This document shows positions 151 to 34,444 of a stretch of DNA of 39,225 nt, one piece after another. The stretch lies in IMG/VR virus record IMGVR_UViG_2574180019_000004, positions 1 through 39,225 of that record; one strand, 5' to 3'. The translations under genes and the position numbers were made by a program. Under the pieces are notes generated by a model. It did not search any database, was not told where the DNA came from, and worked only from the letters and a program-made list of their open reading frames with translations. Each line of letters opens with the position of its first letter. Position 1 is the stretch's first letter. The stretch is from a virus (taxonomy: Duplodnaviria > Heunggongvirae > Uroviricota > Caudoviricetes).

Positions 151-165
151 TTACCTTAAAGGTAT
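151..165. promoter_or_regulatory. Imperfect operator-like palindrome TTACCttaaaGGTAt upstream of int
   Basis: Matches 9 of 10 defined positions of the recurring TTACC-N5-GGTAA site; nested in inverted repeat gacggtat/ataccgtc (145-179). Confidence 0.4.
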
Positions 166-207
166 ACTCTCATACCGTCATGAAAATGGTTTCTATACGG
201 GTGAATT

Positions 208-1464
208 GTGCTTACCGATACAAAATTAAAAAACCTCAAGCCGCAGGACAAACTGTACAAGGTCTCCGATCGTGACGGGCTGTATGTAGCTGTGCTTACG
301 TCAGGCACGGTCTCGTTTCGCTATGACTACCGTATCAACGGTCGCCGCGAAACACTGGTAATCGGGCAGTATGGGCGTGACGGTATCAGCCTGGCAGAAG
401 CGCGAGAAGAACTGATTGCTGCAAAGAAGCTGCTTAAAGCAGGCCAGTCGCCGGCTGCGGCTAAACGTGACGGTATCAAAAAGATTCGTGGTGCCGAGAC
501 GTTTGCGGTACATACCGACAGTTATATGAAACACGTCATCCTGGCTGACAGTACCCGCGCAATGAAGCAGGCAGTGATCGACCGTGACATACTTCCTGTT
601 CTTGGCAACAAAATGATGGCTGAAATTACCACATCGATGGTTCGTGATTTGTGTGACCGGATTGTCGAACGCGGTGGTCGGGCAACAGCAGTGCAGGCCA
701 GGGAGATCATCAGCAGCGTATACCGTCACGCCAATGACCGTGGTCATGGTTTGTTTAATCCTGCGGCTGACATTAAACCTTCGTCTATCGCCATATTTAA
801 ACCACGAGAGCGAACACTGACACCAGAAGAAATTGGCCTGTTCTTCCGTACGCTGGATGCCATTGGTGCTATGGGCACTATGAAAATGGCTTTAAAGCTG
901 GTGCTTATCACTATGGTTCGTAAAGGCGAATTCACCAATGCAACGTGGGACGAAATAGATTTTAAAAAATGGACATGGACAATTCCTTCAGACCGCATGA
1001 AGGGAAGCCGGGCGCACGTTATTTACCTGCCTAAACAGGCACAGGATATATTGGTCGGGTTGCAGATGTGCGCTGGTGGAAGTGAATATCTGGTTCCTGG
1101 TCGTTACAACTTCCGGAAGCCATTATCTAATGCCGCTCTGAACTCTCTGATCGACAGAACGGTGAAAATAATAAATGAAGATGGTGAGCATATTCAGGAC
1201 TTCACCGTACATGATATGCGCCGTACAGCCAGTACGTTGTTGCATGAGGCTGGTTATCCTTCAGACTGGATTGAAAAGGCTCTGGCACATGAGCAGAAAG
1301 GTGTGCGCGCCGTATATAACAAAGCGGAATACGCCAGACAGCGCGCCTACATGTTGCAGCAGTGGGCCGATATGATTGATTCCTGGATTAACGGGGAGCA
1401 TACGGATCTGATTCCGTTCTCCCCGTCGAAGTTTGAGAGGTGGATGGAAGACAGTAATAAATAA
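208..1464 (+). CDS. int: Tyrosine-type site-specific integrase (P4-like family)
   Basis: 418-aa ORF adjacent to att repeat; GTG start at 208 preceded by GGGTGA; N-terminal arm-binding-like region and C-terminal HDMRRT / LAHE / Y-containing catalytic region typical of phage integrases. Confidence 0.9.
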   Translation: MLTDTKLKNLKPQDKLYKVSDRDGLYVAVLTSGTVSFRYDYRINGRRETLVIGQYGRDGISLAEAREELIAAKKLLKAGQSPAAAKRDGIKKIRGAETFAVHTDSYMKHVILADSTRAMKQAVIDRDILPVLGNKMMAEITTSMVRDLCDRIVERGGRATAVQAREIISSVYRHANDRGHGLFNPAADIKPSSIAIFKPRERTLTPEEIGLFFRTLDAIGAMGTMKMALKLVLITMVRKGEFTNATWDEIDFKKWTWTIPSDRMKGSRAHVIYLPKQAQDILVGLQMCAGGSEYLVPGRYNFRKPLSNAALNSLIDRTVKIINEDGEHIQDFTVHDMRRTASTLLHEAGYPSDWIEKALAHEQKGVRAVYNKAEYARQRAYMLQQWADMIDSWINGEHTDLIPFSPSKFERWMEDSNK

Positions 1465-1466
1465 TT

Positions 1467-2126
1467 CTATCCTTCCTGGACTTTGGTAAGCGTCAGATTT
1501 CCGCAGAACACTGCGCCGGTGTCGATGTACATCTGGTTTGCATACACCAGTGGGTGATGTGCTGGCGTATGACCGAAGATGAACAAATCGGCACCGGTTA
1601 TCTCCGAGACAATACCGTCCTGCGCGTCGCTAACCCGCTCACGATTCCATATCACCATTTCTTCTGGTACTGGCTTATCGAATGCGTATTCGTTGTGCGG
1701 GTAGTCTGCGTGACAGATGACGACCTTCTTATTGCCGGTAACCAGTTCGATAATCATCGGGAGGTTGGTAATCTTTGGCAGAAGGTATTTGAGTTGCACA
1801 TCCTGCTCAGAATCAAGTTGGTGCCACCATCCACCGCCGTTTGACATCCAATGTCCGAAACTTCCGCCGTTGACCAGTGCATCCAGCATCATCTGCTCAT
1901 GGTTGCCACGAACAGCTCGGAACCACGGCATAGTAATCAAATCCAGGCATTCGACGTTTTCAGCGCCGCGGTCAACAAGGTCACCAACGGAAATAAGTAA
2001 ATCGCGCGCCGGGTCGAATGAAACTTTGTCGAGTTCGTTCATCAGCAGCGTGTAGCACCCATGCAGATCGCCGACGACGAAGATATTGCACCAGTCAGCG
2101 CCATTGATGCGTTGATATAGGTTCAT
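1467..2126 (-). CDS. Serine/threonine protein phosphatase (lambda PPase / calcineurin-like metallophosphoesterase)
   Basis: GDLHGCY, GDLVDRG and GNHE metallophosphatase motifs; start taken at internal ATG (MNLYQRING...) which overlaps stop of upstream gene as ATGA. Confidence 0.85.
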
Positions 2127-2773
2127 GCTGCACGCTCCCGCCCCTGGTTGTCTATTGGTGACACCGGAGCATTGCTGAATGCATTTGTTAATCCGCCAAT
2201 ATCCAACGCGTATCCAGGGTGTAGTTGCACTGCCGGGTCTTCGCACTGATTACCCCAAACATCGAAGCCATGAGACGTCTGGCGGGCGAACAGTTCAATG
2301 CGAGAAACATCGCCTAACAATTGCACAAGTTTTTCACGAACGATATCTGGTTTTCTTGAGTGCTCAAGCCGCGGTGCGGTAAATGACTGAACGATCCCTG
2401 CATTAATGCGCGTAGGTAGTTTTCCCTTTACCGCAAACAGGCAATCTTCACTATTGGCGCGAGTCATGTGTCCCATACCCATAACCAGTTTATCTGGTTG
2501 TCGACTACCACATTTTATCCACGTGAAGCCCTTCATCGTCATCAGACGAAATCCCCAGGCTTCAACAACTTTTAGTGCTTCGAGTGGTTGTGTTGGCACC
2601 CACCACATGGCCAACAGACAGTTTTCAGCGGTCAAATCCCACACAGGAAGGCGGCAGATATCCAGCACACTCATAACTGGATATTTAAAACCGGCACCGC
2701 GATTACCATCTGCGGCTTTGTCCCGGTATACCCAGGGTGGATCTGCATAGATTAGTGTGTATTTCTTAGTCAT
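2123..2773 (-). CDS. DNA N6-adenine methyltransferase (MT-A70-like, orphan)
   Basis: DPPW catalytic motif near N-terminus ([16 protein letters not shown]); no adjacent restriction endonuclease ORF; translationally coupled to phosphatase gene. Confidence 0.85.
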
Positions 2774-3017
2774 AAACCACCCCACAACATCTTATGCCGC
2801 TATAGTCGCCACGGCGAAGGCCGTTACCTTTTGTGATACATTGGTCCCTGCGAACCGCGATCCTTGCACGTTCAACATCACCAGAAGCAACATCCATACA
2901 CTGAAGCCAAAGGTGAGCGGCAATGCGGAACTGCCCTTTTTTCTCTCTTTCAATCGCGCGTTTTTCGATCTCTATCGCCGCAGGAGTAACGGCGACAATC
3001 TTTGACGGACTGCGCAT
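2766..3017 (-). CDS. Hypothetical early protein (83 aa from ATG at 3017)
   Basis: ORF in leftward operon; AAGGT 5 nt upstream of ATG 3017; no recognisable motif; start uncertain. Confidence 0.4.
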   Translation of the reverse strand: MRSPSKIVAVTPAAIEIEKRAIEREKKGQFRIAAHLWLQCMDVASGDVERARIAVRRDQCITKGNGLRRGDYSGIRCCGVVYD

Positions 3018-3174
3018 TGAAACCTTATTCATGTGATATTTTTCAAGTCGGCTTAACTTTCTCACTTAATCCAACCCTCTCTGAAAATTAATGTCAGCAG
3101 ATAAAGCCATGCTGAAACAGAGGCCAGGAATAAGTACCATCCTGACCATTTGCTCCAGTGCCTTAGCAGCGCAC

Positions 3175-3423
3175 TCATGCAGCGTTGCTCACGGGACGAT
3201 ATACACGTTGCTGAACAGGAGGTTTTTTACCCTGGAACTCTGCCGGGCTTGCTGCCTGACGTTCATCAAGCCAACGCTCAACTTCATCACGGTTCCATGC
3301 GCAGCGTTTATCGGTGATATACCAGCGTTTAGGAAATTCCCCTGCGCGCTCCATACGGTCGATAGTGCTCCATGACAGTGGCACCACCGCCAGGAGTTCC
3401 TTCTTACCTAATGCACCTTTCAT
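3175..3423 (-). CDS. AlpA-like phage transcriptional regulator / excisionase-like HTH protein
   Basis: 82-aa protein with AlpA-family signature around STIDRMERAGEFPKR; position in early operon. Confidence 0.7.
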   Translation of the reverse strand: MKGALGKKELLAVVPLSWSTIDRMERAGEFPKRWYITDKRCAWNRDEVERWLDERQAASPAEFQGKKPPVQQRVYRPVSNAA

Positions 3424-3472
3424 AAATACCTCTCTTGGTTGCAGTGCGGCGCGCGTGGCGCCGCGGTGGTGG

Positions 3473-4354
3473 TTACATAGATGTTTCGTTTAATTCTTCC
3501 CGACGAACGCTGTAAACGTCGGTGGCTTTTGCCAGCAGTTCGTCATCATCTGAAAGTTTTTGTGCAATGTATTTGTAAGCCTTATCCAGTTCGGAGACAG
3601 TGCTGTAATTCATCGCTGCGCTGGTAAAGGCCATCAGCATTTCTTCTGGATCACGGCTATCCGCTTTACGCGTTTGCTCATCAGGCTTTTTCGCTGGTTT
3701 AGCGTTGATCAGACTGTTCATTCCCGCAGCAGTGGTCGTTTGCGGAGTAATGTCTCGCTCAACGCGCGGTGCCGTTTCCTGTAATTCGTCAGGGGTGTAA
3801 ACACCGAGAAGTACATCAGGAGCGTGCAGTCGAGCCCATCGTTTCGTGCAAAGATAGGCAAGTTGCTGGCGCGGATCCTGTTCCCACAATGGAGAGTTAC
3901 GCACTCCGGCTTGCGCCATACTGATGGTAAGCTCACGGGGTTCTGCTTCTCCTTTAAGAACCGCTGACACAGTTACCGTCAGATTCGGTGATTTATCTGT
4001 TTTGCCGTTAACATTCGACCAGTCACCGCTCCAGCGATAATTCAGGCGTGTCGCTAGCAGGCTGGAAGAGGATACGACCGCGTTTACCAACTGTGCTTCG
4101 TAGCCTAACGTTCCGTTTACCACATGCGTTTTTTGCGCCACGGCGAAAGGGTTCATTCCCCACTGTGCCGCCTGCATGGTCACCGCCAGACAATCGGCAG
4201 GTTTGCCTTCAAGATGTTTCGGTACAGTCGCTTTGCTTTGTGACATCAACTCCGCGAAACGCACCAGTTGATTCATGCCCTCCGGGCTGAAGATTGCCGC
4301 AGCAGTACCTACAGTTGCGCCTGGTTGTGATGTGATTGCGATATCATTGCTCAT
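3473..4354 (-). CDS. recT: RecT-family single-strand annealing recombinase
   Basis: 293-aa protein with RecT-like core (AQWGMNPF... region); ATGA overlap with upstream exonuclease gene, the classical exo-recT pair. Confidence 0.85.
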   Translation of the reverse strand: MSNDIAITSQPGATVGTAAAIFSPEGMNQLVRFAELMSQSKATVPKHLEGKPADCLAVTMQAAQWGMNPFAVAQKTHVVNGTLGYEAQLVNAVVSSSSLLATRLNYRWSGDWSNVNGKTDKSPNLTVTVSAVLKGEAEPRELTISMAQAGVRNSPLWEQDPRQQLAYLCTKRWARLHAPDVLLGVYTPDELQETAPRVERDITPQTTTAAGMNSLINAKPAKKPDEQTRKADSRDPEEMLMAFTSAAMNYSTVSELDKAYKYIAQKLSDDDELLAKATDVYSVRREELNETSM

Positions 4355-5172
4355 ACGTACATATCCTGTTTACGTGCCCAGTCAGGGCGTTTAATAATTT
4401 CCACTCCGCCCCACTCATCGTTGATGCGGCATTCGTGATAGGTATTCAGATCCCGGCGGAACAGAGCGTGCCCGGCATCGACATCCGGCGCATCCAGCTC
4501 GAACACGCGTACCGGATACCGACCACAATCAATGCTTTCGCTCACGGCAAGAAAGAAAAAACCATGCGGCTGACCAGTAACCTTCATTGCGCCTTCGCGG
4601 TACATTGCGTCCTGCACGTGGTAGCGGAATTCCTCGATGTGGCGTGCAAAACGGTCCATATCTGCAACCTTTTTCACGTCGACGATCACGTTGTGCTCGT
4701 TCAGCCATTTGTCTGGACGAATGCGGCACAACTCACCAGTCTCTTCATCGTTCCAGTACATTGATGCTTCGTAGCAACCAGGTGCTTCCAGCATCCAGCG
4801 TGCCGCCGGGTGAGCCATTGCGCTATCACGCATCAGCTCCAGTTTCCGCCACTGCTCGGCATCAAGTACCGCAATCCCCATATCCGCTACATCACGAAGA
4901 AATGCTTCTTCGTCAGCTTTACCTTGTTTCGTCCGACGATCGAACTTTGGTGAAACAATGAAGCGTTTGTCGAATTCTCCAGGTTCCAGAAGCAGACAGT
5001 GCAATGCAGTTCCCATATCTAGTGCAGACTTTTTCTCTTCGTCTTCTGGTGCTGACTGAACCCATTTAAGAAGCGCCGGATTCTTGGCAACCATGTCCAG
5101 TTGCGACTTACTCACGCCGTCACCGGCGTGGTAGTCTTCGTTGCTGATGTCGAAATAAATTCCCGGTTTCAT
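4351..5172 (-). CDS. Recombination exonuclease (RecE / exonuclease VIII-like PD-(D/E)XK nuclease)
   Basis: 273-aa ORF immediately upstream of and translationally coupled to recT; sequence resembles prophage exodeoxyribonuclease VIII C-terminal domains. Confidence 0.75.
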   Translation of the reverse strand: MKPGIYFDISNEDYHAGDGVSKSQLDMVAKNPALLKWVQSAPEDEEKKSALDMGTALHCLLLEPGEFDKRFIVSPKFDRRTKQGKADEEAFLRDVADMGIAVLDAEQWRKLELMRDSAMAHPAARWMLEAPGCYEASMYWNDEETGELCRIRPDKWLNEHNVIVDVKKVADMDRFARHIEEFRYHVQDAMYREGAMKVTGQPHGFFFLAVSESIDCGRYPVRVFELDAPDVDAGHALFRRDLNTYHECRINDEWGGVEIIKRPDWARKQDMYV

Positions 5173-5468: not shown

Positions 5469-5470
5469 TA

Positions 5471-5623: not shown

Positions 5624-5642
5624 AATTTGTTACCTCGGTCTG

Positions 5643-5719
5643 TTACCGTTGAGGTAATAATTATGCGTATTTGGTTTGGTGTCAATAGATATGAGTTAAA
5701 AAAATTACCCGTTAGGTAA
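5643..5719. promoter_or_regulatory. Left operator region (OL-like): two perfect TTACC-N5-GGTAA palindromes
   Basis: TTACCgttgaGGTAA at 5643-5657 and TTACCcgttaGGTAA at 5705-5719, plus extra TGTTACC half-site at 5628-5634; between repressor gene and leftward operon. Confidence 0.6.
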
Positions 5720-5730
5720 TCGAACAGGCA

Positions 5731-5756
5731 ATAAAAAAGCCGCCAGAAGGCGGCTT
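5731..5756 (-). terminator. Rho-independent terminator downstream of repressor gene (also weak on + strand)
   Basis: gccgcc-agaa-ggcggc hairpin; on minus strand followed by T-run (plus-strand aaaaaa at 5733-5738). Confidence 0.6.
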
Positions 5757-5776
5757 ACTTACTGAAAAATATGATT

Positions 5777-6361: not shown

Positions 6362-6416
6362 TTTCTGGAAAATCGCCTCATATATGAATCAGTAGATGAT
6401 TCAATTTAAAGCAATA

Positions 6417-6479
6417 TTACCCAACAGGTAAATGCACCCCATAGGTAACTATCCTTGATTTTTGTTACCTTATGGGTGA
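6417..6479. promoter_or_regulatory. Right operator region (OR-like), tripartite
   Basis: Perfect TTACCcaacaGGTAA 6417-6431; variant cACCccataGGTAA 6435-6448; imperfect TTACCttatgGGTgA 6465-6479; lies between repressor and cro-like starts. Confidence 0.6.
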
Positions 6480-6515
6480 ATATTTATTATCTGAAATAAA
6501 TATCAGGCAATAGCT

Positions 6516-6767: not shown

Positions 6768-6791
6768 AGACCGCCATCCGGCGGTCTTTTC
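6768..6791 (+). terminator. Rho-independent terminator after cro-like gene (tR1-like position)
   Basis: agaccgcc-atcc-ggcggtct followed by tttt. Confidence 0.65.
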
Positions 6792-6896
6792 ATATCTATT
6801 CGCACCTCAAAGGTAATAAAAAACCAAATCTGGTTGATCTTTTTTTTGTGTCAGCACAAAATAACCGTAATCCCAATACTAATAACAGGGCTTACC

Positions 6897-7112: not shown

Positions 7113-7928
7113 ATGAGCAGACATGCAACAGATTGGGCCTGGGAGACAGATCCAGGTAGCTCGTCATTAAAGCTCATACTGCTCTCGATGGCTGACAGAG
7201 CCGATGAATATAACCTCTGCTACCCCAGCATAGAACGCCTCGTTAAAGACACTTGCCTGAATAAAAAAACCGTGCAGGCCGGGCTTATATCGCTCATGAA
7301 AATGGGGCTTATTTCAGATACCGGAGAGAGAAAGGGAGCGACGAAAAGAGTGCGGGTTTTCTCTCTTAATATAACCAAAAACGGGAACATTAAAGGCAAC
7401 CGGGAAGGGAGCAATGAACCCGAAAACGGTAATGTTACCGAAAACGGGAATATACCCAAAAACGGGATGTTGAATGATCCCAAAAACGGGATGTTGAATG
7501 ATCCCAAAAACGGGATCCAGAACCAGTCATATAACCAGTCATTTAACCAAGAGAGGGAGAGCAGGACAAAAAGCGGGGATTCTGTGCCTCATGACCCCGG
7601 CGCAAACAACGCCGTGATGAATAACTTTGTTCCTCCTGGTGGGCCAGGGCAATTAGGCAAATTTGTCATGCATGAACAATGGCAGCCATCAGATGACTTT
7701 CTTCGGAAAAGCTCCTTGCAGGGGATCTACCTGGACAGTCTGCCAACGGCACAGGAACTTGCAGAGTTCAGAATTTACTGGATGGCTGAGGGTAAGGCAT
7801 ACCATCAGGCACAGTGGGAGCAGAAGCTGGCAAGGCGGCTGCAGATTAGCAGACAGAAGCAATCAACATTACCTGATAACAACGTTCCGCACTGGAACAG
7901 CCCTGAAGCGTGGGAGGATTTCTTGTGA
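7113..7928 (+). CDS. Replication initiator (lambda O-like) containing internal iterons
   Basis: N-terminal winged-helix-like region (LKLILLSMADRADEY...TVQAGLISLMKMGLI); internal ENGN/KNGM repeats encoded by DNA iterons; followed by P-like gene with GTGA overlap. Confidence 0.65.
   Translation: MSRHATDWAWETDPGSSSLKLILLSMADRADEYNLCYPSIERLVKDTCLNKKTVQAGLISLMKMGLISDTGERKGATKRVRVFSLNITKNGNIKGNREGSNEPENGNVTENGNIPKNGMLNDPKNGMLNDPKNGIQNQSYNQSFNQERESRTKSGDSVPHDPGANNAVMNNFVPPGGPGQLGKFVMHEQWQPSDDFLRKSSLQGIYLDSLPTAQELAEFRIYWMAEGKAYHQAQWEQKLARRLQISRQKQSTLPDNNVPHWNSPEAWEDFL
7374..7517. repeat. Iteron array (candidate origin of replication) inside O-like gene
   Basis: Six copies of CCnAAAACGG(G/T)AA at 7374, 7419, 7438, 7455, 7479, 7503, including perfect 24-bp tandem cccaaaaacgggatgttgaatgat x2; followed by direct repeat aaccagtcat(a/t)taacc. 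Confidence 0.7.
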
Positions 7929-8747: not shown

Positions 8748-8824
8748 TTACCTATGAGGTAACAAAATATTCTAAGCTCTATTGATTTTGTGTCTTATGT
8801 GGTTTTTAATTACCTTAGAGGTAA
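8748..8824. promoter_or_regulatory. Two perfect operator palindromes upstream of accessory/late operon
   Basis: TTACCtatgaGGTAA 8748-8762 and TTACCttagaGGTAA 8810-8824 (second overlaps RBS of gene at 8828); ATGTGGTT motif at 8797. Confidence 0.6.
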
Positions 8825-8827
8825 ATC

Positions 8828-9172
8828 ATGAGAAAACAGATACAGGCTCTTGGTCGACTCAAAACAGGCCAGATGAACAAAACAGAATCTGCGTATTGCC
8901 AGCACCTTGAGCAGCGTAAACGTGCAGGGGAAATCGTCTGGTATCGATTTGAGGGTATCAAGCTGCGGTTAGCTGACAACACGTTCTATACGCCCGATTT
9001 TGCTGTGATGCTCGCCACCGGCGAGATGGAACTGCACGAAGTGAAAGGTTTCTGGACCGACGACGCCAGGGTGAAAACCAAAGTCGCCGCAGATCAGTAT
9101 CCGTTCCGAATCATCGGGGTAACGGTTAAACCAAAGAAAGCAGGTGGTGGCTGGAACATCGAAGAGTTCTGA
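8828..9172 (+). CDS. DUF1064-like protein, possible PD-(D/E)XK-type nuclease
   Basis: 114 aa; D...E-x-K pattern (YTPDFAV ... ELHEVKG); identification from memory of family, not verified. Confidence 0.5.
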   Translation: MRKQIQALGRLKTGQMNKTESAYCQHLEQRKRAGEIVWYRFEGIKLRLADNTFYTPDFAVMLATGEMELHEVKGFWTDDARVKTKVAADQYPFRIIGVTVKPKKAGGGWNIEEF

Positions 9173-10383: not shown

Positions 10384-10965
10384 ATGAGCGCTATAACCAA
10401 AGAACGTATCAAATTATTCATTAAAAATCCGCTTGATAACGGACTTACTCGTGGCGAACAAATGGAACTGGCACGAATTGCACTGGCATCACTGGGAGCA
10501 GAACCTGTAAGCCAAACTTACAACTTGCCAGAATTAATCGAAGGCATGGAGGTTTCCATTGATGTAAGCACTTGTGATGCGGATTTAGGTAATCGCTATT
10601 TCGGTACCGTCACCGAGGCGTTAGAACTTGATACTGCCAAGAATGGTTACATCCTCCTGGTTCAGGACGCAGAGCCAAACTTCGATATAAATGGCAACTC
10701 TCCGGTAACTCCGGATGGTTGGGTTATAGTGCCGAAGAAACTAACCGCTGAGAACGGCGCTAAGGGTGTGCTATCCGGTGAATTTTCAGAAACGACGTTT
10801 ATAAGCTGCCCGGAATGTTTTGGCGATGATGATTGCGATACCTGTGACGGTAGCGGGCGGATTGAAATTAAAGTACCAGTCACGTGGACGACCATAAAAT
10901 CCATCTGGGATAAAGGTATTGCGTATTTTGCAGCAGAACCGAGGCAGGAGGTTAACCGTGGCTAA
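10384..10965 (+). CDS. DUF551-like protein with C-terminal zinc ribbon
   Basis: NGNSPVTPDGW motif; CPECFGDDDCDTCDGSGR zinc ribbon; shares DNA modules with next gene. Confidence 0.6.
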   Translation: MSAITKERIKLFIKNPLDNGLTRGEQMELARIALASLGAEPVSQTYNLPELIEGMEVSIDVSTCDADLGNRYFGTVTEALELDTAKNGYILLVQDAEPNFDINGNSPVTPDGWVIVPKKLTAENGAKGVLSGEFSETTFISCPECFGDDDCDTCDGSGRIEIKVPVTWTTIKSIWDKGIAYFAAEPRQEVNRG

Positions 10966-11575: not shown

Positions 11576-11832
11576 TGGATGTAAAAGAGAAGGTTTTGCA
11601 GGTGATGCGTTCCCGGGCTGCCCTGCAAGATAAAGCTCTCGGCGGGGAATATCCATTCAGGATGGCAACCTGGAATCTGCGGTTGGCAATGGAGAAGGAA
11701 TTTCCTGATGAAGAATGGCGTTCGGCAGATTTGCGCAAAATTCTTATGGAGCTGGCTAAAGACGGAACAGTATCCAAAGATACCCATGCCAGCCGGATTG
11801 GTCAGGCGGTATGGAGACTGGAGGTGAGGTAA
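11572..11832 (+). CDS. Hypothetical protein (86 aa)
   Basis: ATGA overlap with upstream stop; AGGAGG RBS. Confidence 0.5.
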   Translation: MMDVKEKVLQVMRSRAALQDKALGGEYPFRMATWNLRLAMEKEFPDEEWRSADLRKILMELAKDGTVSKDTHASRIGQAVWRLEVR

Positions 11833-12113
11833 TGGCTAACCTGCAACTTGCCGTTAAAGGTGAATACTTCGATGCCATGATTCGAGGGGAGAAAACGGAA
11901 GAGTATCGCCTGTGTAATGACTACTGGAATAAGCGCCTCGTTAACCGTAAGTATGACCGCCTGATTATCACAAAGGGATATCCGAAGCGCGAAGACTTCA
12001 GTCGCAGAATTGACGTCCCGTATAACGGATATGAAATAAAAACAATCACACATCCACACTTCGGTGATAAACCGGTAAAGGTGTTCGCGATAAAGGTAAA
12101 TATTGATGGCTAA
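11832..12113 (+). CDS. ASCH/PUA-like small protein
   Basis: 93 aa MANLQLAVKGEYFDAMIRGEKTEEYRL...; fold assignment from memory, unverified. Confidence 0.45.
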   Translation: MANLQLAVKGEYFDAMIRGEKTEEYRLCNDYWNKRLVNRKYDRLIITKGYPKREDFSRRIDVPYNGYEIKTITHPHFGDKPVKVFAIKVNIDG

Positions 12114-12493: not shown

Positions 12494-12519
12494 GCCGCCA
12501 ACTATGGCGGCTTTATTTT
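12494..12519 (+). terminator. Rho-independent terminator upstream of terS
   Basis: gccgcc-aactat-ggcggc followed by tttatttt. Confidence 0.6.
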
Positions 12520-12530: not shown

Positions 12531-12563
12531 TTACCACAACGGTAACTATTACCACGGTGGTTA
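12531..12563. promoter_or_regulatory. Operator palindromes immediately upstream of terS
   Basis: Perfect TTACCacaacGGTAA 12531-12545 and imperfect TTACCacggtGGTtA 12549-12563. Confidence 0.55.
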
Positions 12564-12565
12564 TG

Positions 12566-13159
12566 ATGCCTGCTGAACCTAAAACCTATAAACGCAAATC
12601 AACGCAATTTAAGCCACTAACAGCAATGCAGGAGGCTTATTGCCAGTCATACATCAAAACGCCTGAAAACCAGACTCAGGCAGCGATTAACGCAGGATTC
12701 TCCCCAAATACAGCGGCAGTTAAAGCCAGTGTCATGATGCGCGATGAACGCATTCAAAAACGGATTGCCGAGTTGATGGAGGAGCGCAACAAACGAATGC
12801 GCGTCAGTGCTGATTACGTTCTCATGCGCCTGGTGGAGATCGACCAGATGGACGTGATCGACATCCTCAACGACGATGGGAGCCTTAAACCAATCCGTGA
12901 GTGGCCGAAAATCTGGCGCACTACGCTTAGTGGCTTTGATCTGTCATCGACCATCATGAACATGAACGAGGATTCGATAGAGACAATCCTCAAAAAAATT
13001 AAATGGCCTGACAAGGTGAAGAACCTTGAGCTGATTGGTAAGCATGTTGATGTCAACGCGTTCAAAGAACGTCTGGATGTTAATGTGAATGTGACAATTG
13101 CTGATCGCATAGCAGCAGCCAGGAAGAGACTGAAAGAACGTCAGGATGGCAATAAGTGA
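12566..13159 (+). CDS. terS: Terminase small subunit
   Basis: Conserved TerS-like region AYCQSYIKTPENQTQAAINAGFSPNTAAVKASVMMRD; directly upstream of and overlapping terL; N-terminal part of the tracked ORF treated as non-coding. Confidence 0.8.
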   Translation: MPAEPKTYKRKSTQFKPLTAMQEAYCQSYIKTPENQTQAAINAGFSPNTAAVKASVMMRDERIQKRIAELMEERNKRMRVSADYVLMRLVEIDQMDVIDILNDDGSLKPIREWPKIWRTTLSGFDLSSTIMNMNEDSIETILKKIKWPDKVKNLELIGKHVDVNAFKERLDVNVNVTIADRIAAARKRLKERQDGNK

Positions 13160-14721: not shown

Positions 14722-15096
14722 TTATTGCTCGCTTAGCTTCTGCTTCAGCAAGTAACCTTCGAGCATCCAGATTTTGTTTACAGCATTCTGCCGGGCAATC
14801 TTCCTACCAATTTCTGCATCAAAGTTTTCCGGGCTTGCACAGGCACTCTCTCCGGTAACGGTGAAGCCATTCTTCAGTACCAATACGCAGAAAGTGAGAA
14901 GGTGCAGAGCATCAGGGGTGGCTTCGACATAAGGCTCCGGATTATAAATAAGGTCATCTTCTTTAGCCTGGTGGTCACCCTGCGCAGCAGTGAAAAAATG
15001 CTCACTGCAAATGAGGCCTTCAATTTTCTCGGGTGTTACACGCGGTGCCGTTTTGCCTTTCTCAACGATTTCTTTTTCGATTTGCTGGTCGTTCAT
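14722..15096 (-). CDS. Hypothetical protein (moron, opposite strand to packaging/head genes)
   Basis: 124-aa ORF with strong RBS AAGGTGAG 4 nt before ATG; co-oriented with tRNA; no motif recognised. Confidence 0.6.
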   Translation of the reverse strand: MNDQQIEKEIVEKGKTAPRVTPEKIEGLICSEHFFTAAQGDHQAKEDDLIYNPEPYVEATPDALHLLTFCVLVLKNGFTVTGESACASPENFDAEIGRKIARQNAVNKIWMLEGYLLKQKLSEQ

Positions 15097-15207: not shown

Positions 15208-15251
15208 GTAAAAAGGGCGGTGATAGTCCTTCAAGGGAACCATCACCGCCA
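15208..15251 (-). terminator. Candidate terminator downstream of tRNA
   Basis: gggcggtgat ... atcaccgcc 9-bp stem with 17-nt loop, followed on minus strand by UUUU. Confidence 0.45.
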
Positions 15252-15293: not shown

Positions 15294-15370
15294 TGGCGTG
15301 GCATGCAGGATTCGAACCTGCGACCAACCGCTTAGAAGGCGGTTGCTCTGTCCGACTGAGCTAATGCCAC
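15294..15370 (-). tRNA. tRNA-Arg (anticodon UCU)
   Basis: Minus-strand 77-nt cloverleaf folded by hand: acceptor GTGGCAT/ATGCCAC, D-stem GCTC/GAGC, anticodon stem ACCGC/GCGGT with loop CTTCTAA, T-arm GCAGG-TTCGAAT-CCTGC, discriminator G, encoded CCA. Confidence 0.9.
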
Positions 15371-15692: not shown

Positions 15693-15707
15693 TTACCTTA
15701 AAGGTAA
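15693..15707. promoter_or_regulatory. Perfect operator palindrome upstream of head operon
   Basis: TTACCttaaaGGTAA; ATGTGGTT motif at 15753 between it and gene start. Confidence 0.6.
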
Positions 15708-15797
15708 TAATTCGTGCGTTAAATGTCAACTACCTACGATAAATAAATCATATGTGGTTAAATTGGTAATAATTTAATTGCGTACGGAGTCATTGAT

Positions 15798-19741: not shown

Positions 19742-20179
19742 ATGATCACCGACAAACTGTTGATGTTCTCCGAAGCTCAGGCGGTTACGAATACCGCGGC
19801 TTCTACTGACGTAATCGATCTCGGTCCAATTGATGGAAACCGTCGCGATATCGGTGTGGGTTACCCGCTTGAGTTTTGGGTGCTGGTTAACGAATCCGCC
19901 ACGGCAAGTGGTGAGGCAACTGTAAACATCCAGTTGCAGACGAGTGAGAATAACAGCTCATGGACCACTATTTATGATAGTGGCGCACTGGCAAAGACCG
20001 CCCTGGCAGCAGGTAAACGAGTTGTTTCTGCAAAGGTGCCTGCCGGTGTTCAGCGATATCTGCGTGTTAACTACTCCGTCGCAACTGGCCCACTAACGGC
20101 CGGCAAATTCACTGCGGGTATCAGTCTGGATGTTGATGCCAATACGCCGTACCCGATCCGCTCAAAAGTAACTGGTTAA
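19742..20179 (+). CDS. Hypothetical virion protein (possible capsid decoration)
   Basis: 145-aa ORF with RBS GGAGAAAG; position after capsid gene. Confidence 0.5.
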   Translation: MITDKLLMFSEAQAVTNTAASTDVIDLGPIDGNRRDIGVGYPLEFWVLVNESATASGEATVNIQLQTSENNSSWTTIYDSGALAKTALAAGKRVVSAKVPAGVQRYLRVNYSVATGPLTAGKFTAGISLDVDANTPYPIRSKVTG

Positions 20180-29303: not shown

Positions 29304-29308
29304 ATTAA

Positions 29309-31783
29309 ATGAGACAGGAATGTATACAAGCGGTCCAGCAGGCGGCGCAGCGCACGTTAACGGCGCGAGAAATACAGAACATTGAAGACCGCATTTATCG
29401 AAATATGCGCTCCATTGCTCGTGATGACCCGATGTCGTGGCGACAACTTTCCGAATCAGAACGGTTGTATCGTGCAGCACAATTGGCATCTGAAGAATTA
29501 CAGCGAGAAGCGGCATTAAAGAAACGTCGTGTGGCCCTCACTATAGCCGCACGTCAGAGATTGGATAAATTTATCAATAGCTATCAAGGGGCTGATGGGA
29601 AACTTGGCGCTCTTAACCGTACTATTGCTTTTAATGCAGACGGTAAATCGAATTTCCTCTCTGTTGAATCCAGAACAAAAGCCACCCGTGATTATGCATT
29701 GAGTCAATTGCAGGAGGCATTCGAAGCAGTTGATCCTCGCTTTTTTGGTCTGTTTGAAGATGAAGCGGGCGTACGTGACCTGGTATATGAAATGCGGGGG
29801 CAAAATACTGGCAATGCTAAAGCAAGAAAAGGTGCTAAGGCGTGGAGAGAAGTTACAGAGCTGCTGCGCCGCCGGTTTAATGATGCTGGTGGGGACATTG
29901 GCTATCTCGAAAACTGGGGGATCCCTCAACATCATTCTATGGAAAAGGTTGGGGCAGTATCAAAGGATAAGTGGGTTAGCGATGTTATAGGTAAGCTGGA
30001 TCGCAAATATTATATCCGAGCCGATGGACAACTGATGAACGATGCCGAGTTGTCTTCATTTCTTGGAGAGGCTTATAACACGATCGCTACTGGTGGGCTG
30101 AATAAGCTTACTGATACCGGAATGCGAATTTCCGGCGCACGTGCTAACCGTGGTAATGCATCACGACAGATACATTTCAAAGATGCAGATTCCTATCTGC
30201 AATATCAGCAACTTTATGGCGATCGCTCTCTATGGGAAATCATGGTCGGTCACCTGGAAGGTATCAGTAAAGATATTGCACTGGTGGAAACATATGGCCC
30301 AAACCCCGATCATGTTTTCCGCTCTCTTCTTGATCAGGTGAAGGCAGAAACGGCAACAGCTAACCCGAGTAAAACCGGTAAAGTCGAGCGGCTGGCGAAC
30401 AACACAGAGAATCTGTACAACTTTATTTCCGGAAAGACACAGCCTGTAGCGAATCCGCACATCGCGCGATGGTCTGACAATATCCGCAACTGGCTGGTTG
30501 CCAGCAGACTCGGATCCGCGTTGCTGTCATCGTTCTCTGATCTTGGAACCATGTATCTGTCTGCGAAGGTGACCAACCTTCCAATGAACCAGTTATTCCG
30601 CAACCAGCTTGAAGCTATGGACCCAACGAACCGTACTGAGCTTGCGCGGGCGCGCCGCGCTGGTCTGGCGATGGAATCTCTACTTGGCAGCGTTAACCGC
30701 TGGGCGATGGATAATATGGGGCCGTCTGTGTCTCGTTGGGCTGCAACGGCGGTAATGCGTGCCAGTGGGCTTACAGCATGGTCAGATGCGCACAAGCGCG
30801 CCTATGGCGTAACCATGATGGGAAGCCTGGGAGAAGTAGTGTCACGGACACCAGACCTTCGTAGCCTCGATGACTCTGATTTTCGTATCCTGAAAAGTAA
30901 AGGGATTACTGACACAGACTGGAGCGTATGGAAGCTGGCGCAACAGGAGGACTGGGGGAACGGTAATAATACGATGCTGACACCGGAAAGCATTATGCGT
31001 ATCCCTGATTCAGCAGTTAAACATCTTGGTGAGCCTGAACGCGTGAAATTTGAGGCAATGCGTAAACTGCTCGGTGCCGTAACTGAAGAAGTTGATATGG
31101 CTGTTATTACACCGGGCGCACGTGAGCAGATGTTCGTAGGGTCTGGTCTTCAGCGTGGAACATGGAAAGGTGAATTAACGAGAAGTGTTTTCCTGTTTAA
31201 ATCGTTCCCTATCTCGGTTGTTATGCGTCACTGGTCACGCGCTATGGGTATGCCGTCTGCTGGTGGGCGTGCAGCATATATAGCAACGTTTTTAGCAAGC
31301 ACAACCATGCTTGGTGCTCTTTCCATGCAGATTACTGATCTTATTAATGGGAGAAATCCAAAGGAAATGACCGGTGACCACATGGTTAAATTCTGGATAA
31401 ATGCATTTTTAAAAGGTGGCGGGGCTGGGTTGTACGGTGATTTTCTTTTCTCTGACCACACTAGGTACGGGAGCGGCGCGCTGGCGTCGATGCTTGGCCC
31501 GGTAGCTGGTCTGGTTGATGACGTAGTGAAGATAGCTCAGGGCATACCGCTAAATGCTGTGGAAGGGAAGAGTGAGCAGACTGGTGGTGATCTGGTTAAG
31601 CTGGGGAAGGGGCTGATGCCAGGTGCGAATCTCTGGTACTTGAAGGCGGCTCTCGATCATATGATCTTTAACCAGATGCAGGAGTATTTTTCACCAGGCT
31701 ATTTGCGTAAAATGGAGCAACGTTCGAAGAAAGAGTTTAACCAGACATACTGGTGGCGACCTCAGGATGTCACTCCGCAATAA
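29309..31783 (+). CDS. Internal virion/ejection protein (large)
   Basis: 824-aa ORF with RBS GAGG; last large gene before moron island. Confidence 0.55.
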   Translation: MRQECIQAVQQAAQRTLTAREIQNIEDRIYRNMRSIARDDPMSWRQLSESERLYRAAQLASEELQREAALKKRRVALTIAARQRLDKFINSYQGADGKLGALNRTIAFNADGKSNFLSVESRTKATRDYALSQLQEAFEAVDPRFFGLFEDEAGVRDLVYEMRGQNTGNAKARKGAKAWREVTELLRRRFNDAGGDIGYLENWGIPQHHSMEKVGAVSKDKWVSDVIGKLDRKYYIRADGQLMNDAELSSFLGEAYNTIATGGLNKLTDTGMRISGARANRGNASRQIHFKDADSYLQYQQLYGDRSLWEIMVGHLEGISKDIALVETYGPNPDHVFRSLLDQVKAETATANPSKTGKVERLANNTENLYNFISGKTQPVANPHIARWSDNIRNWLVASRLGSALLSSFSDLGTMYLSAKVTNLPMNQLFRNQLEAMDPTNRTELARARRAGLAMESLLGSVNRWAMDNMGPSVSRWAATAVMRASGLTAWSDAHKRAYGVTMMGSLGEVVSRTPDLRSLDDSDFRILKSKGITDTDWSVWKLAQQEDWGNGNNTMLTPESIMRIPDSAVKHLGEPERVKFEAMRKLLGAVTEEVDMAVITPGAREQMFVGSGLQRGTWKGELTRSVFLFKSFPISVVMRHWSRAMGMPSAGGRAAYIATFLASTTMLGALSMQITDLINGRNPKEMTGDHMVKFWINAFLKGGGAGLYGDFLFSDHTRYGSGALASMLGPVAGLVDDVVKIAQGIPLNAVEGKSEQTGGDLVKLGKGLMPGANLWYLKAALDHMIFNQMQEYFSPGYLRKMEQRSKKEFNQTYWWRPQDVTPQ

Positions 31784-31792
31784 GGAACAACA

Positions 31793-32206
31793 ATGAAGGA
31801 ATTATTGCTGTTATCGGTATTTTTGATATCCGCTTGCTCGACATCCTATGATGTTTATGACGGTGTTGATAAGGCATATTGCGACAAAGTTAAAATGGAT
31901 TTTTCTCTTGCCAAGACGGCGAAGGATAGTTGTATTGATCACTACGTCAAGACTTATACCAAGCCAGCATCATCGGCATCTGATATTGCTGAAGGTGCTG
32001 TGTTTGAGTGTAACAAGGTGATATCCATCGCAGCGAGTTCTTCATACGATGCTGCTGTATGTGCAATGGCTGAAAGAAACGGCATGTCAGTGCAAAAAGT
32101 TAATAGCATGATAAACAGTAATGACGAAGCCAAAATAAGAACTGATATCAGCTCGGTGAAAAAAGATGCCATGAACAGAGTTGTAAAATATCAGTCATCT
32201 TTATAA
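31793..32206 (+). CDS. Lipoprotein (moron; candidate superinfection-exclusion factor)
   Basis: Signal peptide with lipobox MKELLLLSVFLISAC-S; 137 aa; followed by palindrome and terminator. Confidence 0.7.
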   Translation: MKELLLLSVFLISACSTSYDVYDGVDKAYCDKVKMDFSLAKTAKDSCIDHYVKTYTKPASSASDIAEGAVFECNKVISIAASSSYDAAVCAMAERNGMSVQKVNSMINSNDEAKIRTDISSVKKDAMNRVVKYQSSL

Positions 32207-32207
32207 G

Positions 32208-32219
32208 TCGTGACATGTC
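32208..32219. repeat. Palindrome GTGACATGTCAC (copy 3 of 3)
   Basis: Exact copy, immediately followed by terminator hairpin. Confidence 0.6.
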
Positions 32220-32243
32220 ACAGGCCGCAAAAGCGGCCTTGTT
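32220..32243 (+). terminator. Rho-independent terminator after lipoprotein gene
   Basis: aggccgc-aaaa-gcggcct followed by tgtttt. Confidence 0.65.
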
Positions 32244-32263
32244 TTAACGAATGCCACCGCCCG

Positions 32264-32950
32264 TCAGAAGAACCCTGCTTTGTCGTTGATGTACTCCGCG
32301 TGCGTCTGGATATCACGCAGGCATTTGTTCACACCGACGATGTAGCAGAACATGGTGGTCAACTCCGCCGCCGCGCCCGATACGTCGTGCCCGTCTTCCT
32401 GTAACTGGTTCAGCAGATTCATCAGCAGTGAGTTCTCCGTCAGGCCGAGAACACCAGACGGCGAGTGAATCAGACTGCGGTAGCCGGGCTTTAGTGGGGC
32501 GCTGTAGGTTTTGTTCTCTATCTTCATTGCCTGCATCACTGCTGATGCTGTGGCGTTGGCTACCTGGTCGGCAACCATCTTTATGCGTTCTTCTTGCGGG
32601 AGCGAGTTTTTAATGTAACTTCCGGTGCGGCGGATCTGAGGAAGAACCTCACCTGTAACCCATTTACGAAAGCGGTATGGGATAGTGCCTGGTGTCACCG
32701 CATCGCGGCAGCGGAGGATCAGTGTGTAGAGGCCTGACTCGTTGATAATATTGGTTTCGCCTTGACGGCCTAAGTTAAATTTAGCCCTTTCATCATCATC
32801 AAGAGATTTTATTGACATAGTGGGGTTTGTCAGTTGAAGAGCTTTAATAACGTCTTTGGCAACAAACCAAGGATTTCCATCAATAACAATGGCTCGAATG
32901 GTTGCTTCTGATTCAAAATGAAAAACAGATGGGGTTACGTTAGCAGTCAT
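32264..32950 (-). CDS. Bro-N domain antirepressor-like protein
   Basis: Start at internal ATG (MTANVTPSVFHFESEATIRAIVIDGNPWFVAKDV = Bro-N signature) with RBS AAGGTGA; C-terminal approx 70 aa paralogous to the small gene at 34096-34353. Confidence 0.75.
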   Translation of the reverse strand: MTANVTPSVFHFESEATIRAIVIDGNPWFVAKDVIKALQLTNPTMSIKSLDDDERAKFNLGRQGETNIINESGLYTLILRCRDAVTPGTIPYRFRKWVTGEVLPQIRRTGSYIKNSLPQEERIKMVADQVANATASAVMQAMKIENKTYSAPLKPGYRSLIHSPSGVLGLTENSLLMNLLNQLQEDGHDVSGAAAELTTMFCYIVGVNKCLRDIQTHAEYINDKAGFF

Positions 32951-33231
32951 AGTGATCACCTTTGTAGTTAGGTTAATCACCACTACCGACGCCAATCGGT
33001 TGGTGGTGAACTGTGCAGGGTTGGCGTAACCGGCTACAAAGGACCCGGCGCACCTTTCGGTGCCCCCACACAGCCCACCATAGAATAGGTGCGCTTTACA
33101 CATAAAAAAACCGCTTATGCGGCATATGTGCCTCTGTAGTAATCCGGGACGCCAATCCCGGCACTGGATTTTGCCAGTGCCCGATTACTATGGCACAAGA
33201 GGAGTGCGATGTAAATTTACCGTAAAGGTAA
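32951..33231 (-). promoter_or_regulatory. Structured 5' leader / candidate small RNA upstream of Bro-N antirepressor
   Basis: Hairpin 32977-33009 (12-bp stem, loop ACGCCAAT); complementary TTGGCGT at 33021-33027; hairpin 33050-33063; terminator-like ccgc-ttat-gcgg + A-run (33104-33122); three-helix element 33136-33191 with loop ACGCCAAT again; candidate -35 TTGATT / -10 TATCAT on minus strand. Confidence 0.4.
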
Positions 33232-33324
33232 TGATAAGCGCGAAGAAACATTGAAATCAACCGTATTTGGTTGATTGCGTTTAACGCTTGATCACCTGAA
33301 AGCAAGATATTACCTTTAAGGTAA
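33217..33324. promoter_or_regulatory. Two perfect operator palindromes in divergent promoter region
   Basis: TTACCgtaaaGGTAA 33217-33231 and TTACCtttaaGGTAA 33310-33324 (20 bp upstream of ATG of gene at 33345). Confidence 0.6.
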
Positions 33325-33344
33325 TGTTATTGTGAGGAAAAGCA

Positions 33345-34073
33345 ATGGAAGTTTTCTGGATAGTTGTTGGTGTGGTTGCGGTGATTATTTACGTTATCAA
33401 CCAGAACAAGACTAAGATCTCTGATCGTACGGTCGTTAATCATAACAAAACGATAAAGACCGAAGATGGGGAGATAACGATTAATCGTACACAGGTGATA
33501 GAACACACCTCTACTCAGTTTCAAAAAACTGGAGGTAATGCGCCTAATATTTCCGCACCTCCTGCTTATGATAGTGCGGTAATCCAGACATATTATAAAC
33601 AGCAGGAGTTAGCAAAAGAGAGGCAACTGATTCAGCCAAAGCCGTTTACAGCTGAGATTCCACCTGGAGTGTCAACGCGTCCGGCATATCATGGAAGATT
33701 CCCTGGTGATGACATATCGTCTCAGTCATCTAAAAAAGCACCTCAGGCAATATCAGAGCCAGCAAGAATACCTTCTGTATCGCCGCCAAAAGAAGAATCA
33801 GCTAACAGAGTTTCAAGTGGTAGCAAGCAGTGCTTGCGATGCAGAATAAACCTTCCATATGAAAAATTCAGGAAATCGTCAAAAAATCCAGATGGATTGA
33901 CTAAATGGTGTGCAAGGTGTCTCGATGGCCCAAAGAATACACGCCATATGAAGTGGTGCCCAATTTGTAATGTCCGCAGAAAACGAACCAGCTTTTACCC
34001 TAATAATCAAAATGCGGACGGCTTAATGGCATGGTGCAAAACGTGCTGGGATGAGCACAAAGCGAAACGATAG
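33345..34073 (+). CDS. Membrane-anchored tandem zinc-ribbon protein (unknown function)
   Basis: N-terminal TM helix (VFWIVVGVVAVIIYVI) followed by basic NQNKTK; S/P-rich linker; two repeated modules KxCxRC...NPDGLxxWCxxC (CLRC...WCARC and CPIC...WCKTC); RBS GAGGAAAAG. Confidence 0.65.
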   Translation: MEVFWIVVGVVAVIIYVINQNKTKISDRTVVNHNKTIKTEDGEITINRTQVIEHTSTQFQKTGGNAPNISAPPAYDSAVIQTYYKQQELAKERQLIQPKPFTAEIPPGVSTRPAYHGRFPGDDISSQSSKKAPQAISEPARIPSVSPPKEESANRVSSGSKQCLRCRINLPYEKFRKSSKNPDGLTKWCARCLDGPKNTRHMKWCPICNVRRKRTSFYPNNQNADGLMAWCKTCWDEHKAKR

Positions 34074-34097
34074 GCCGCTCTTGCGGCCTTTAAATTT
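34072..34097. terminator. Intrinsic terminator shared by convergent genes
   Basis: ggccgc-tctt-gcggcc followed by tttaaattt. Confidence 0.55.
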
Positions 34098-34353
34098 ACC
34101 GGGTTTGTTTTCGTAATTGTTCGGCACAATAGTCGAGATGTGTTTGCAGATCCCGCATAGACATCTGTGAGCTGGTGACGTAGTTAATCAGTGCAGTCAG
34201 TTCGGCAAGTGGGCCATCGACATTAAATCCATCCTTATCGAGATCCCGGAGTAATTTCATCAAGTGCGATCCCTCCACCAGTGACCTGACGCCTCCCGGC
34301 GTGTGAATCCTTTCGGTAAATCCGTCTTCCAGTGGATAGTGATACTGCTGCAT
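34096..34353 (-). CDS. Small antirepressor-like protein (85 aa), LexA-box controlled
   Basis: ATG 34353 after GGAGAAG; paralogous to Bro-N protein C-terminus (IHTPGGVRSLVEGSHLMKLL...AELTALINYV vs IHSPSGVLGLTENSLLMNLL...AELTTMFCYI); LexA box about 20 bp upstream. Confidence 0.6.
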   Translation of the reverse strand: MQQYHYPLEDGFTERIHTPGGVRSLVEGSHLMKLLRDLDKDGFNVDGPLAELTALINYVTSSQMSMRDLQTHLDYCAEQLRKQTR

Positions 34354-34372
34354 CTTATCTTCTCCATGCAAT

Positions 34373-34392
34373 AACTGTATATTTATACAGTA
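34373..34392. promoter_or_regulatory. LexA (SOS) box
   Basis: aaCTGTATATTTATACAGta = CTGT-N8-ACAG, 18/20 match to consensus TACTGTATATATATACAGTA. Confidence 0.7.
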
Positions 34393-34429
34393 GCAAATAA
34401 TTTGTTTGCTATCCAGCACGTTTTGCAAA

Positions 34430-34444
34430 TCACCTGAAAGGTAA
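34430..34444. promoter_or_regulatory. Variant operator tCACCtgaaaGGTAA between antirepressor-like and tail fibre genes
   Basis: Right half perfect, left half CACC variant as at 6435 and 6802; ATGTGGTT motif at 34477. Confidence 0.4.

Follow-up and report, generated by a model that had tools for sequence, protein, structure and literature searches.

Palindromic sites and genes of the prophage

We analyzed a stretch of viral DNA of 39,225 nucleotides (Caudoviricetes; IMG/VR record IMGVR_UViG_2574180019_000004), referred to below as the window, and focused on a 15-bp palindrome, TTACC-N5-GGTAA, that precedes many of its operons, and on the gene for the immunity repressor Rep, which has copies of this palindrome on both sides in the fashion of the operators OL and OR. 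The window is a complete prophage extending from attL to attR, and its 17-bp att core, ATTGAGTGGGAATGATT, is found both at position 1 and at position 39209. It is of the phiV10/epsilon15 type (genus Uetakevirus, the epsilon15-like podoviruses): its early region is mostly 97–98% identical to the Escherichia phages PAS61, phiv142-3, and phiV10, and its genome architecture and attP core are common to epsilon15. Sister prophages in E. coli chromosomes are located at the 3' end of guaA. The genes and sites discussed below are summarized in Table 1.

Nine exact copies of TTACC-N5-GGTAA were found in the window, at 5643, 5705, 6417, 8748, 8810, 12531, 15693, 33217, and 33310, which are the positions named in the original prediction, and none occurred in 100 dinucleotide-preserving shuffles. 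When up to one mismatch was allowed, 13 matches were observed versus 0.63 expected, the additional sites being those at 151, 6465, 12549, and 34430. Of the six near-perfect variants that had been proposed, these four hold with one mismatch each; the other two are weaker, with two mismatches at 6802 and three at 6435. We counted both as sites because relatives have better copies at the matching positions: for site 6435, an exact copy at 33358 in epsilon15, and for site 6802, copies with one mismatch in phiV10 (at 33112), Tyrion, and 13E0780. The extended consensus was ATTACC-N5-GGTAAT with an A/T-rich center, and the palindromes were perfectly symmetric in the 10 specified bases. A scan with a position weight matrix (PWM) at a threshold of ≥ 14 bits gave 12 sites in the window, compared with 0.1 in shuffled sequences, and 50 kb of flanking E. 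coli sequence gave no hit. Across 59 kb of host flank, no exact copy was seen, which favors a phage-specific motif. Half-sites spaced by N3, N4, N6, or N7 did not occur in the window.

In a sister prophage annotated with PGAP, intergenic DNA amounts to only 8.6% of the sequence but holds 13 of the 16 sites with ≤ 1 mismatch, and two of the three others were the terS pair, inside a long terS call. In the annotations of epsilon15, SPC32H, Tyrion, and TL-2011b, terS starts at an ATG downstream of the second terS site; the earlier statement of an intergenic location for all copies is correct if this ATG is the start and fails for the terS pair under the longer call. Sites were present, as had been expected, before the replication, accessory, terS, portal, Bro-antirepressor, and ant/tail-fiber units, and seven or more strong sites lie far from the repressor gene, at distances of 2–28 kb. 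However, the proposal of a copy at every transcription-unit start was too broad, in that the lysis operon has a half-site only and the minus-strand Gp49-family gene at 14722–15096 has no site. The operator at 33310 had also been ascribed to an antirepressor gene. The gene concerned (33345–34073, plus strand) belongs to phrog_6762, to which no function is assigned, and contains Zn-ribbon/endonuclease VII-like and Lar-like segments; the genes with an Ant domain are instead those at 32264–33103 and 34096–34353. Terminators are located ahead of several operator cassettes (5737–5756, 6768–6787, and 12494–12511), and therefore the units give the impression of being insulated from one another and under separate control.

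Table 1. Coordinates of genes, operators, and promoter elements in the window (mismatches are relative to TTACC-N5-GGTAA; HTH, helix-turn-helix)
Feature	Position	Strand	Remarks
Near-site upstream of int	151–165		One mismatch; flanked by inverted Int arm-type repeats
OL proximal operator	5643–5657		Exact; begins at last base of PL -10 and covers start site
OL distal operator	5705–5719		Exact; 62 bp from proximal operator; just past rep terminator (5737–5756)
Rep repressor, 194 aa	5777–6361	-	N-terminal HTH, middle HTH_3-like dimerization, and C-terminal tetramerization/Ant-binding domains
OR operator beside rep start	6417–6431		Exact; syntenic in all relatives
Middle OR site	6435–6449		Degenerate, three mismatches, right half intact; exact in epsilon15 (33358) and SPC32H (34407)
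OR operator	6465–6479		One mismatch; over -35/spacer of rightward PR
Cro-like HTH protein, 76 aa	6516–6746	+	phrog_35, transcriptional repressor
Weak operator	6802–6816		Two mismatches, PWM score 10.1; after cro terminator (6768–6787), ~60 bp upstream of replication-operon promoter
Distal operator of accessory (DUF1064...) operon	8748–8762		Exact; 62-bp pair kept in all 8 genomes
Proximal operator of accessory operon	8810–8824		Exact; abuts putative -10; 3 nt before ATG at 8828
Basic Cys-rich protein, 112 aa	12103–12444	+	phrog_536, "transcriptional regulator"; homologous to N15 gene 46
First terS operator	12531–12545		Exact; 20 bp past terminator (12494–12511); conserved in 6 genomes
Second terS operator	12549–12563		One mismatch; 18 bp from first; 18-bp pair in all relatives
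tRNA-Arg, anticodon TCT	15294–15370	-	Between terL and portal operon; adjoins strong minus-strand terminator (15216–15250)
Operator of portal/head-tail operon	15693–15707		Exact; epsilon15 repressor-site annotation at 2931–2947
Portal late-promoter box, CATATGTGGTT	15749–15759	+	56 bp from operator start
Bro-N protein with C-terminal Ant domain	32264–33103	-	Pfam Bro-N; phrog_130/450
Bro-Ant operator	33217–33231		Exact; starts at last base of leftward promoter -10
Operator	33310–33324		Exact; 20 bp upstream of gene 33345–34073
Small antirepressor Ant, 85 aa	34096–34353	-	87% identical to SPC32H Ant, E = 3e-56
LexA box, CTGTATATTTATACAG	34375–34390		Perfect; between ant and its promoter; same layout in SPC32H, box between ant and Rep site
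Divergent ant/tail-fiber operator	34430–34444		One mismatch (TCACC); abuts ant -35; ~70 bp upstream of tail-fiber start site
Tail-fiber late-promoter box, CATATGTGGTT	34474–34484	+	44 bp from operator start; followed by GGTAAT-TAGAAT
Lysis-operon half-site	37216–37222	+	AGGTAAT only; relatives carry full TCACC-N5-GGTAAT operator

Rep and the operators of related phages

Rep matched the Rep repressor of phage SPC32H over its full length (PDB 5D50, E = 4e-42; also 5D4Z, E = 4e-20). It is 100% identical to the Rep proteins of phiV10, ZX5, and PAS61, and ~42% identical to that of epsilon15 and also to that of SPC32H. A YdaS-like HTH at residues 21–61 and HTH_3 at residues 106–147 were recognized with Pfam, so its earlier description as a double-HTH repressor is a fair one; Pfam gave HTH families only, and no S24 (LexA-like) autocleavage domain was found in Rep. 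In one report, Rep is described as a tetramer that binds palindromic sites and is broken up by the tetrameric antirepressor Ant (PMC9638917). A second report divides Rep into an N-terminal DNA-binding, a middle dimerization (MDD), and a C-terminal looping-type tetramerization domain, places two pairs of MDDs ~100 Å apart, and remarks that the mechanism by which it represses "has not been extensively characterized" (PMC9986798). When Rep of ZX5 was overexpressed, free phage was abolished and the endolysin and holin transcripts decreased by >99.9% (PMC9782041). We consider it probable that ATTACC-N5-GGTAAT is the operator of the prophage immunity repressor Rep, and the earlier suggestion of a repressor operator arranged in an OL/OR-like manner around the repressor gene remains the best explanation of the sequence data.

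We compared the window with nine relatives; these come from E. coli, Salmonella, Enterobacter, Klebsiella, and Serratia. In every relative examined, TTACC-N5-GGTAA was by far the most frequent 5-N5-5 palindrome, and the number of exact copies was 11 in epsilon15, 10 in both SPC32H and TL-2011b, nine in each of Enterobacter phage Tyrion, Klebsiella phage BUCT711, and the 13E0780 prophage, eight in phiV10, and seven in the 20-kb pieces of a Serratia prophage and of a second E. coli prophage. The sites were syntenic with those in the window at OL, OR, the accessory operon, terS, portal, and ant/tailspike, as would be expected of positions conserved among related prophages. The two sequence-based checks named in the original prediction, frequency in host DNA and conservation of positions, thus both speak for a real, phage-specific site. 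Between orthologous sites, the pairwise identity was 98–99% in the half-sites, 62% in the central five bases, and 63–67% in the flanks. The spacings within site groups were also fixed: the OL pair is 62 bp apart in seven genomes and 63 bp in the Klebsiella phage, with a third OL site added at a spacing of 76 bp in the Salmonella phages. Likewise, the two accessory-operon sites are 62 bp apart in all eight genomes, those at terS are separated by 18 bp, and those at OR by 17–18 + 30 bp. These distances were kept while the intervening sequence diverged. Because the half-sites are conserved and the spacings fixed while the rest drifts, we infer that selection acts on the sites themselves.

A distributed set of such sites had been annotated before. 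The GenBank record of epsilon15 (AY150271.2) contains seven "protein_bind" features labelled repressor/lysogeny, which are located upstream of terS, the gp3/portal operon, the tailspike gene, and the RuvC-like accessory operon, with three at OL. The annotated sites read ATTACC-N5-GGTAAT and account for seven of the 11 exact copies; as far as the record shows, they are predictions rather than footprints. Both the occurrence of the motif at dispersed places and its attribution to the repressor were thus on record before the present analysis, and the feature is largely known at the annotation level. A full-text literature search with the consensus string, and with Uetakevirus and operator, returned nothing further. 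Beyond the epsilon15 annotation, the present analysis confirms the feature in a phiV10-type prophage and adds the 62-bp phasing, which is strict, a second late-promoter box, and a natural variant without the lysis operator.

The window and epsilon15 have the same palindrome in the same syntenic places; they differ in that epsilon15 has three OL sites (76 + 62 bp) and the window two, and in that their Rep proteins are only 42% identical. With SPC32H, the window shares full-length Rep homology, an Ant that is 87% identical, a similarly placed LexA box, and exact palindromes (10 in SPC32H) at the same places, again with a Rep identity of ~42%. The work on SPC32H, by Kim and Ryu in 2013 and Kim et al. 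in 2016, reportedly deals with the tetramer structure and the action of Ant, and is said not to describe a genome-wide set of sites. The multi-copy palindrome, the position of Rep between OL and OR, the syntenic sites, and an Ant gene under a LexA box, which are sequence hallmarks of the Rep-operator system of Uetakevirus, are all present in the window, and on every criterion that can be tested by sequence, the feature belongs to the epsilon15/SPC32H system.

A more distant comparison was provided by Pseudomonas phage PseuP_224, whose cI has only the N-terminal domain of Rep in common and is fused to a different C-terminus. In the 43 kb of this phage, TTACC-N4-GGTAA occurs four times, twice on either side of cI and at no other place (coordinates: 10906–10947, 11768–11822, and 11851–12081, which include an unannotated 76-aa Cro-like open reading frame, ORF). 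The half-site matches that of the window, the spacing is shorter by one base, and the sites are distributed in a lambda-like way. We regard PseuP_224 cI as an independent link between the N-terminal domain of Rep and the TTACC half-site.

Promoter geometry and regulation of the late genes

We next describe the promoters relative to the operators. The leftward PL is TTGACA-17-AATTAT, with its -10 ending at 5657, and PR is TTGTTA-17-TATTAT at 6462–6490. The accessory promoter, read by eye, is TTGATT-17-TTTAAT with operator 8810–8824 at the -10 end, and the leftward Bro-Ant promoter is TTGATT-18-TATCAT, ends at 33231, and has its operator over the -10 and the start site. In the mechanism that we propose, pairs of the N-terminal HTH domains of Rep would each read a TTACC half-site. 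The operator extends from the end of the -10 over the start site at the PL, accessory, and Bro-Ant promoters, and over the -35 and spacer at PR, and since the operators cover the -10/start site or the -35/spacer, Rep would keep RNA polymerase out. Two of these promoters, PL and that of the accessory operon, have a partner operator exactly 62 bp upstream, ~6 helical turns away. A Rep tetramer with two DNA-binding pairs could bridge the two sites cooperatively and form a small loop; we infer such bridging, and it fits the paired arrangement. The proximal accessory operator holds the Shine-Dalgarno sequence GAGG, and the second terS operator overlaps a GGTGG ribosome-binding region (12549–12568). 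Because these operators overlap ribosome-binding sequences, transcripts would start in or just before the operator and would have very short leaders. No convincing promoter was found near the tandem terS sites, which lie between the terminator and the ribosome-binding site and may act as a roadblock. A strict consensus for integration host factor (IHF) was not found near the operators of the window, although epsilon15 annotates IHF sites beside its operators.

The late promoters had a different composition. A second motif, CATAT(G/A)TGGTT, was found at 8794–8804, 15749–15759, and 34474–34484, with a variant at 37225–37235. Its offset from the Rep operator was 46 bp at the accessory operon, 56 bp at portal, 44 bp at the tail fiber, and 47–48 bp at the lysis operon of relatives, and these downstream offsets were fixed in 8–10 genomes. 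At portal, a 30-bp block was invariant in 8–9 genomes, from E. coli to Klebsiella phages. Plausible -10s follow the box at the portal, tail-fiber, and lysis promoters (TAATTT, TAGAAT, and TATGAT, respectively), no recognizable -35 was found at any of the three, and at the portal and tail-fiber promoters a GGTAAT half-site abuts the -10. This composition suggests that the late promoters are activator-dependent and that the CATATGTGGTT box is the putative activator site. Two candidate regulators were present, a PerC-like protein at 2766–3065 and the conserved basic Cys-rich protein of 112 aa. In the latter, C80, C83, C92, and C94 are invariant and C100 is nearly so, and its gene always comes last before the terminator and terS; no family was assigned to this protein by Pfam or NCBIfam, and its AlphaFold2 model (mean pLDDT, 60) was too low in confidence for use in a fold search. 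In the original prediction, direct control by one DNA-binding protein was proposed to stand in place of a regulatory cascade. A scan of 16 proteins from the regulatory regions gave no N or Q homolog, but with -35-less late promoters bearing the CATATGTGGTT box and candidate regulators in the genome, the exclusion of a cascade is doubtful.

At the lysis operon, the full operator was lost via a different tail-fiber module (region 37200–37290). The resulting tail-fiber/holin junction recurs unchanged in another strain and was located in 19 complete E. coli genomes; a BLAST search of the phage collection gave no match to it. The persistence of this junction in 19 genomes indicates that Rep is dispensable at the lysis promoter. 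The portal and tail-fiber promoters, and the lysis promoters of relatives, each have one full operator at approximately -70 or -82, upstream of the -35-less promoter and its box, and Rep would probably serve there as a second lock, looping to the GGTAAT half-site over the -10 or blocking an activator. We tentatively suggest, as a possibility that we hold with some doubt, that the late genes are under two locks: a Rep tetramer that sits on a strong operator at a fixed helical phase (62-bp pairs, and -70/-82 at the late promoters) and reaches the half-site at the -10, and a candidate activator that reads the CATATGTGGTT box, for which the Cys-rich protein before terS and the PerC-like protein are candidates. 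If so, one repressor would hold every operon directly while a temporal tier was kept, and the lysis promoter of the sub-lineage of the window would have lost the first lock without harm.

Induction would proceed as in SPC32H, where, in the 2013 work of Kim and Ryu, LexA is reported to control ant. DNA damage would remove LexA from the ant promoter, Ant would dismantle the Rep tetramers, and all operons would lose Rep at once. The C-terminus of the Bro-N protein is 38% identical to SPC32H Ant (E = 9e-20), and together with the operator at its promoter this suggests a second, Rep-controlled antirepressor, which would add to the strength of the switch. In lytic growth, the Cro-like protein may use the same sites. 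The divergent ant/tail-fiber operator is syntenic in eight genomes and corresponds to a repressor-site annotation at 19895–19911 in epsilon15. As a separate observation, the parts of the immunity system evolve at very different rates, with Ant 87% identical and Rep ~42% identical between the window and SPC32H.

Several observations weigh against the assignment of all sites to Rep. The full site at the late promoters is far upstream (-70/-82), a position that is also typical of activators; the lysis operon lacks a full site here, yet this configuration persists in the 19 complete genomes; the accessory -10 (TTTAAT) was read by eye, and a promoter scan tool gave no call there; and the occupancy of the late sites, like the binding of this particular Rep, is a prediction from sequence. 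In addition, the Cro-like protein, whose HTH is invariant in seven phages and which is 78% identical to its epsilon15 counterpart, is conserved at least as much as the N-terminal domain of Rep, so co-conservation cannot tell which of the two proteins reads the site. Its HTH shows weak similarity to the N-terminal HTH of Rep, and it is possibly a second reader of the Rep operators. An attempt to separate Rep from Cro by covariation failed, since TTACC is kept in all family members and both the N-terminal domain of Rep and the Cro-like HTH are conserved. The comparison with PseuP_224 is limited in the same respect, in that this phage, which shares the N-terminal domain of Rep alone, also has a Cro-like ORF.

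The sites outside the immunity region might serve mainly the Cro-like protein or another phage regulator, in lytic control or activation, with Rep acting only at OL and OR. The invariance of the Cro-like HTH and its weak alignment with that of Rep, the centering of the late sites near -70/-82, and the strictly conserved distance between site and promoter would all agree with such a role. We nonetheless consider it unlikely, because the accessory and Bro-Ant operators are positioned for repression, over the -10 and start site, because the late sites are indistinguishable in sequence from those of OL and OR and should thus be bound by Rep too, and because overexpression of Rep in ZX5 abolishes the transcripts of the lysis genes (PMC9782041). 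Even less probable, in our estimation, is that the scattered copies are passive remnants of a duplicated promoter-operator cassette and have no function of their own. The cassettes do share more than the palindrome, namely a TAAAAT-type flank, a TTGAT -35, and a TATGTGGTT stretch at similar offsets, but their half-sites are 98–99% identical across phages in which Rep is only 42–59% identical and the center and flanks ~62%, and the spacings are fixed despite the change in the intervening sequence. Bipartite palindromes can also be targets of restriction-modification systems, and the phage encodes an MT-A70 adenine methylase, as annotated in relatives. Nevertheless, the copies are confined to intergenic DNA, which makes up ~9% of the sequence, and keep fixed distances to promoters; two sets of sites flank the repressor gene; the host flank is devoid of copies; and PseuP_224, which is unrelated except for the DNA-binding domain of Rep, has the same half-sites around cI. 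A target of DNA modification or restriction, a host-factor site, or a structural or packaging signal is therefore highly improbable, and a host factor or restriction-modification target was rejected on the basis of the site positions and the absence of sites from the host flank.

Comparison with other repressor systems and additional features

The proposed control by Rep at dispersed sites can be compared with several known repressors. In lambda, as in the window, operators flank the repressor gene and overlap divergent PR/PRM-like promoters, a Cro-like gene is the neighbor, and cooperative looped binding is likely; unlike lambda, the window has no S24 domain in its repressor, would rely on an antirepressor for induction, and has operators at the late and accessory operons as well; lambda keeps its operators within the immunity region and makes use of a Q cascade. 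Phage P1 C1 has dispersed operators, which are asymmetric 17-bp sequences, and C1 has no relation to the HTH proteins of the XRE type. One immunity repressor directly over many operons, with antirepressors for induction or the bypass of immunity, would be common to P1 and the window, but the analogy is functional only, since Rep is an XRE-type HTH protein and its site is symmetric. The original prediction had likened the sites to the stoperators of mycobacteriophage L5. Many repressor sites outside the immunity region are indeed found for L5 gp71, but the likeness fails on symmetry and, for most sites, on position: in a general description, the L5/L1 sites are asymmetric, orientation-dependent, located within transcription units, and stop elongation (PMC1934351), whereas those in the window are palindromic and mostly overlap or precede promoters, and only the terS pair could be a roadblock. 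Rco of pLS20 (TetDloop; PMC9986798) resembles Rep in its N-terminal HTH, its C-terminal tetramerization domain, and its release by a partner protein. The paired operator regions are 75 bp apart in pLS20 and 62 bp in the window, and Rco recognizes direct repeats in a single promoter region, whereas Rep would read single palindromes over about 10 promoters.

If Rep acts as proposed, a common family of prophages of E. coli, Salmonella, Klebsiella, and Enterobacter would be wired unlike lambda: with operators at almost every operon, induction could release the early, replication, packaging, head, and tail-fiber genes at once. This would bear on the tightness of prophage silencing and on the use of phiV10-type phages as reporter or detection phages. 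It would also help in predicting cross-immunity, since the operator, the Cro-like protein, and the DNA-binding domain of Rep are conserved across hosts.

The site upstream of int had also been counted among the operators. A copy with one mismatch is indeed present at 151, but it lies within 141–181 between the inverted repeats GTGACGGTAT and ATACCGTCA. The epsilon15 record labels GTGACGGTAT as an integrase-binding (arm-type) site, and because the near-site is conserved together with these arm-type repeats, it may not be a Rep operator; we regard its status as a repressor site as ambiguous. Finally, iteron-like tandem repeats with periods of 18, 24, and 12 bp were observed at 7418–7549, within the gene for a DnaT-like replication initiator; the 24-bp unit is present in 2.6 perfect copies, and these repeats are probably the replication origin.

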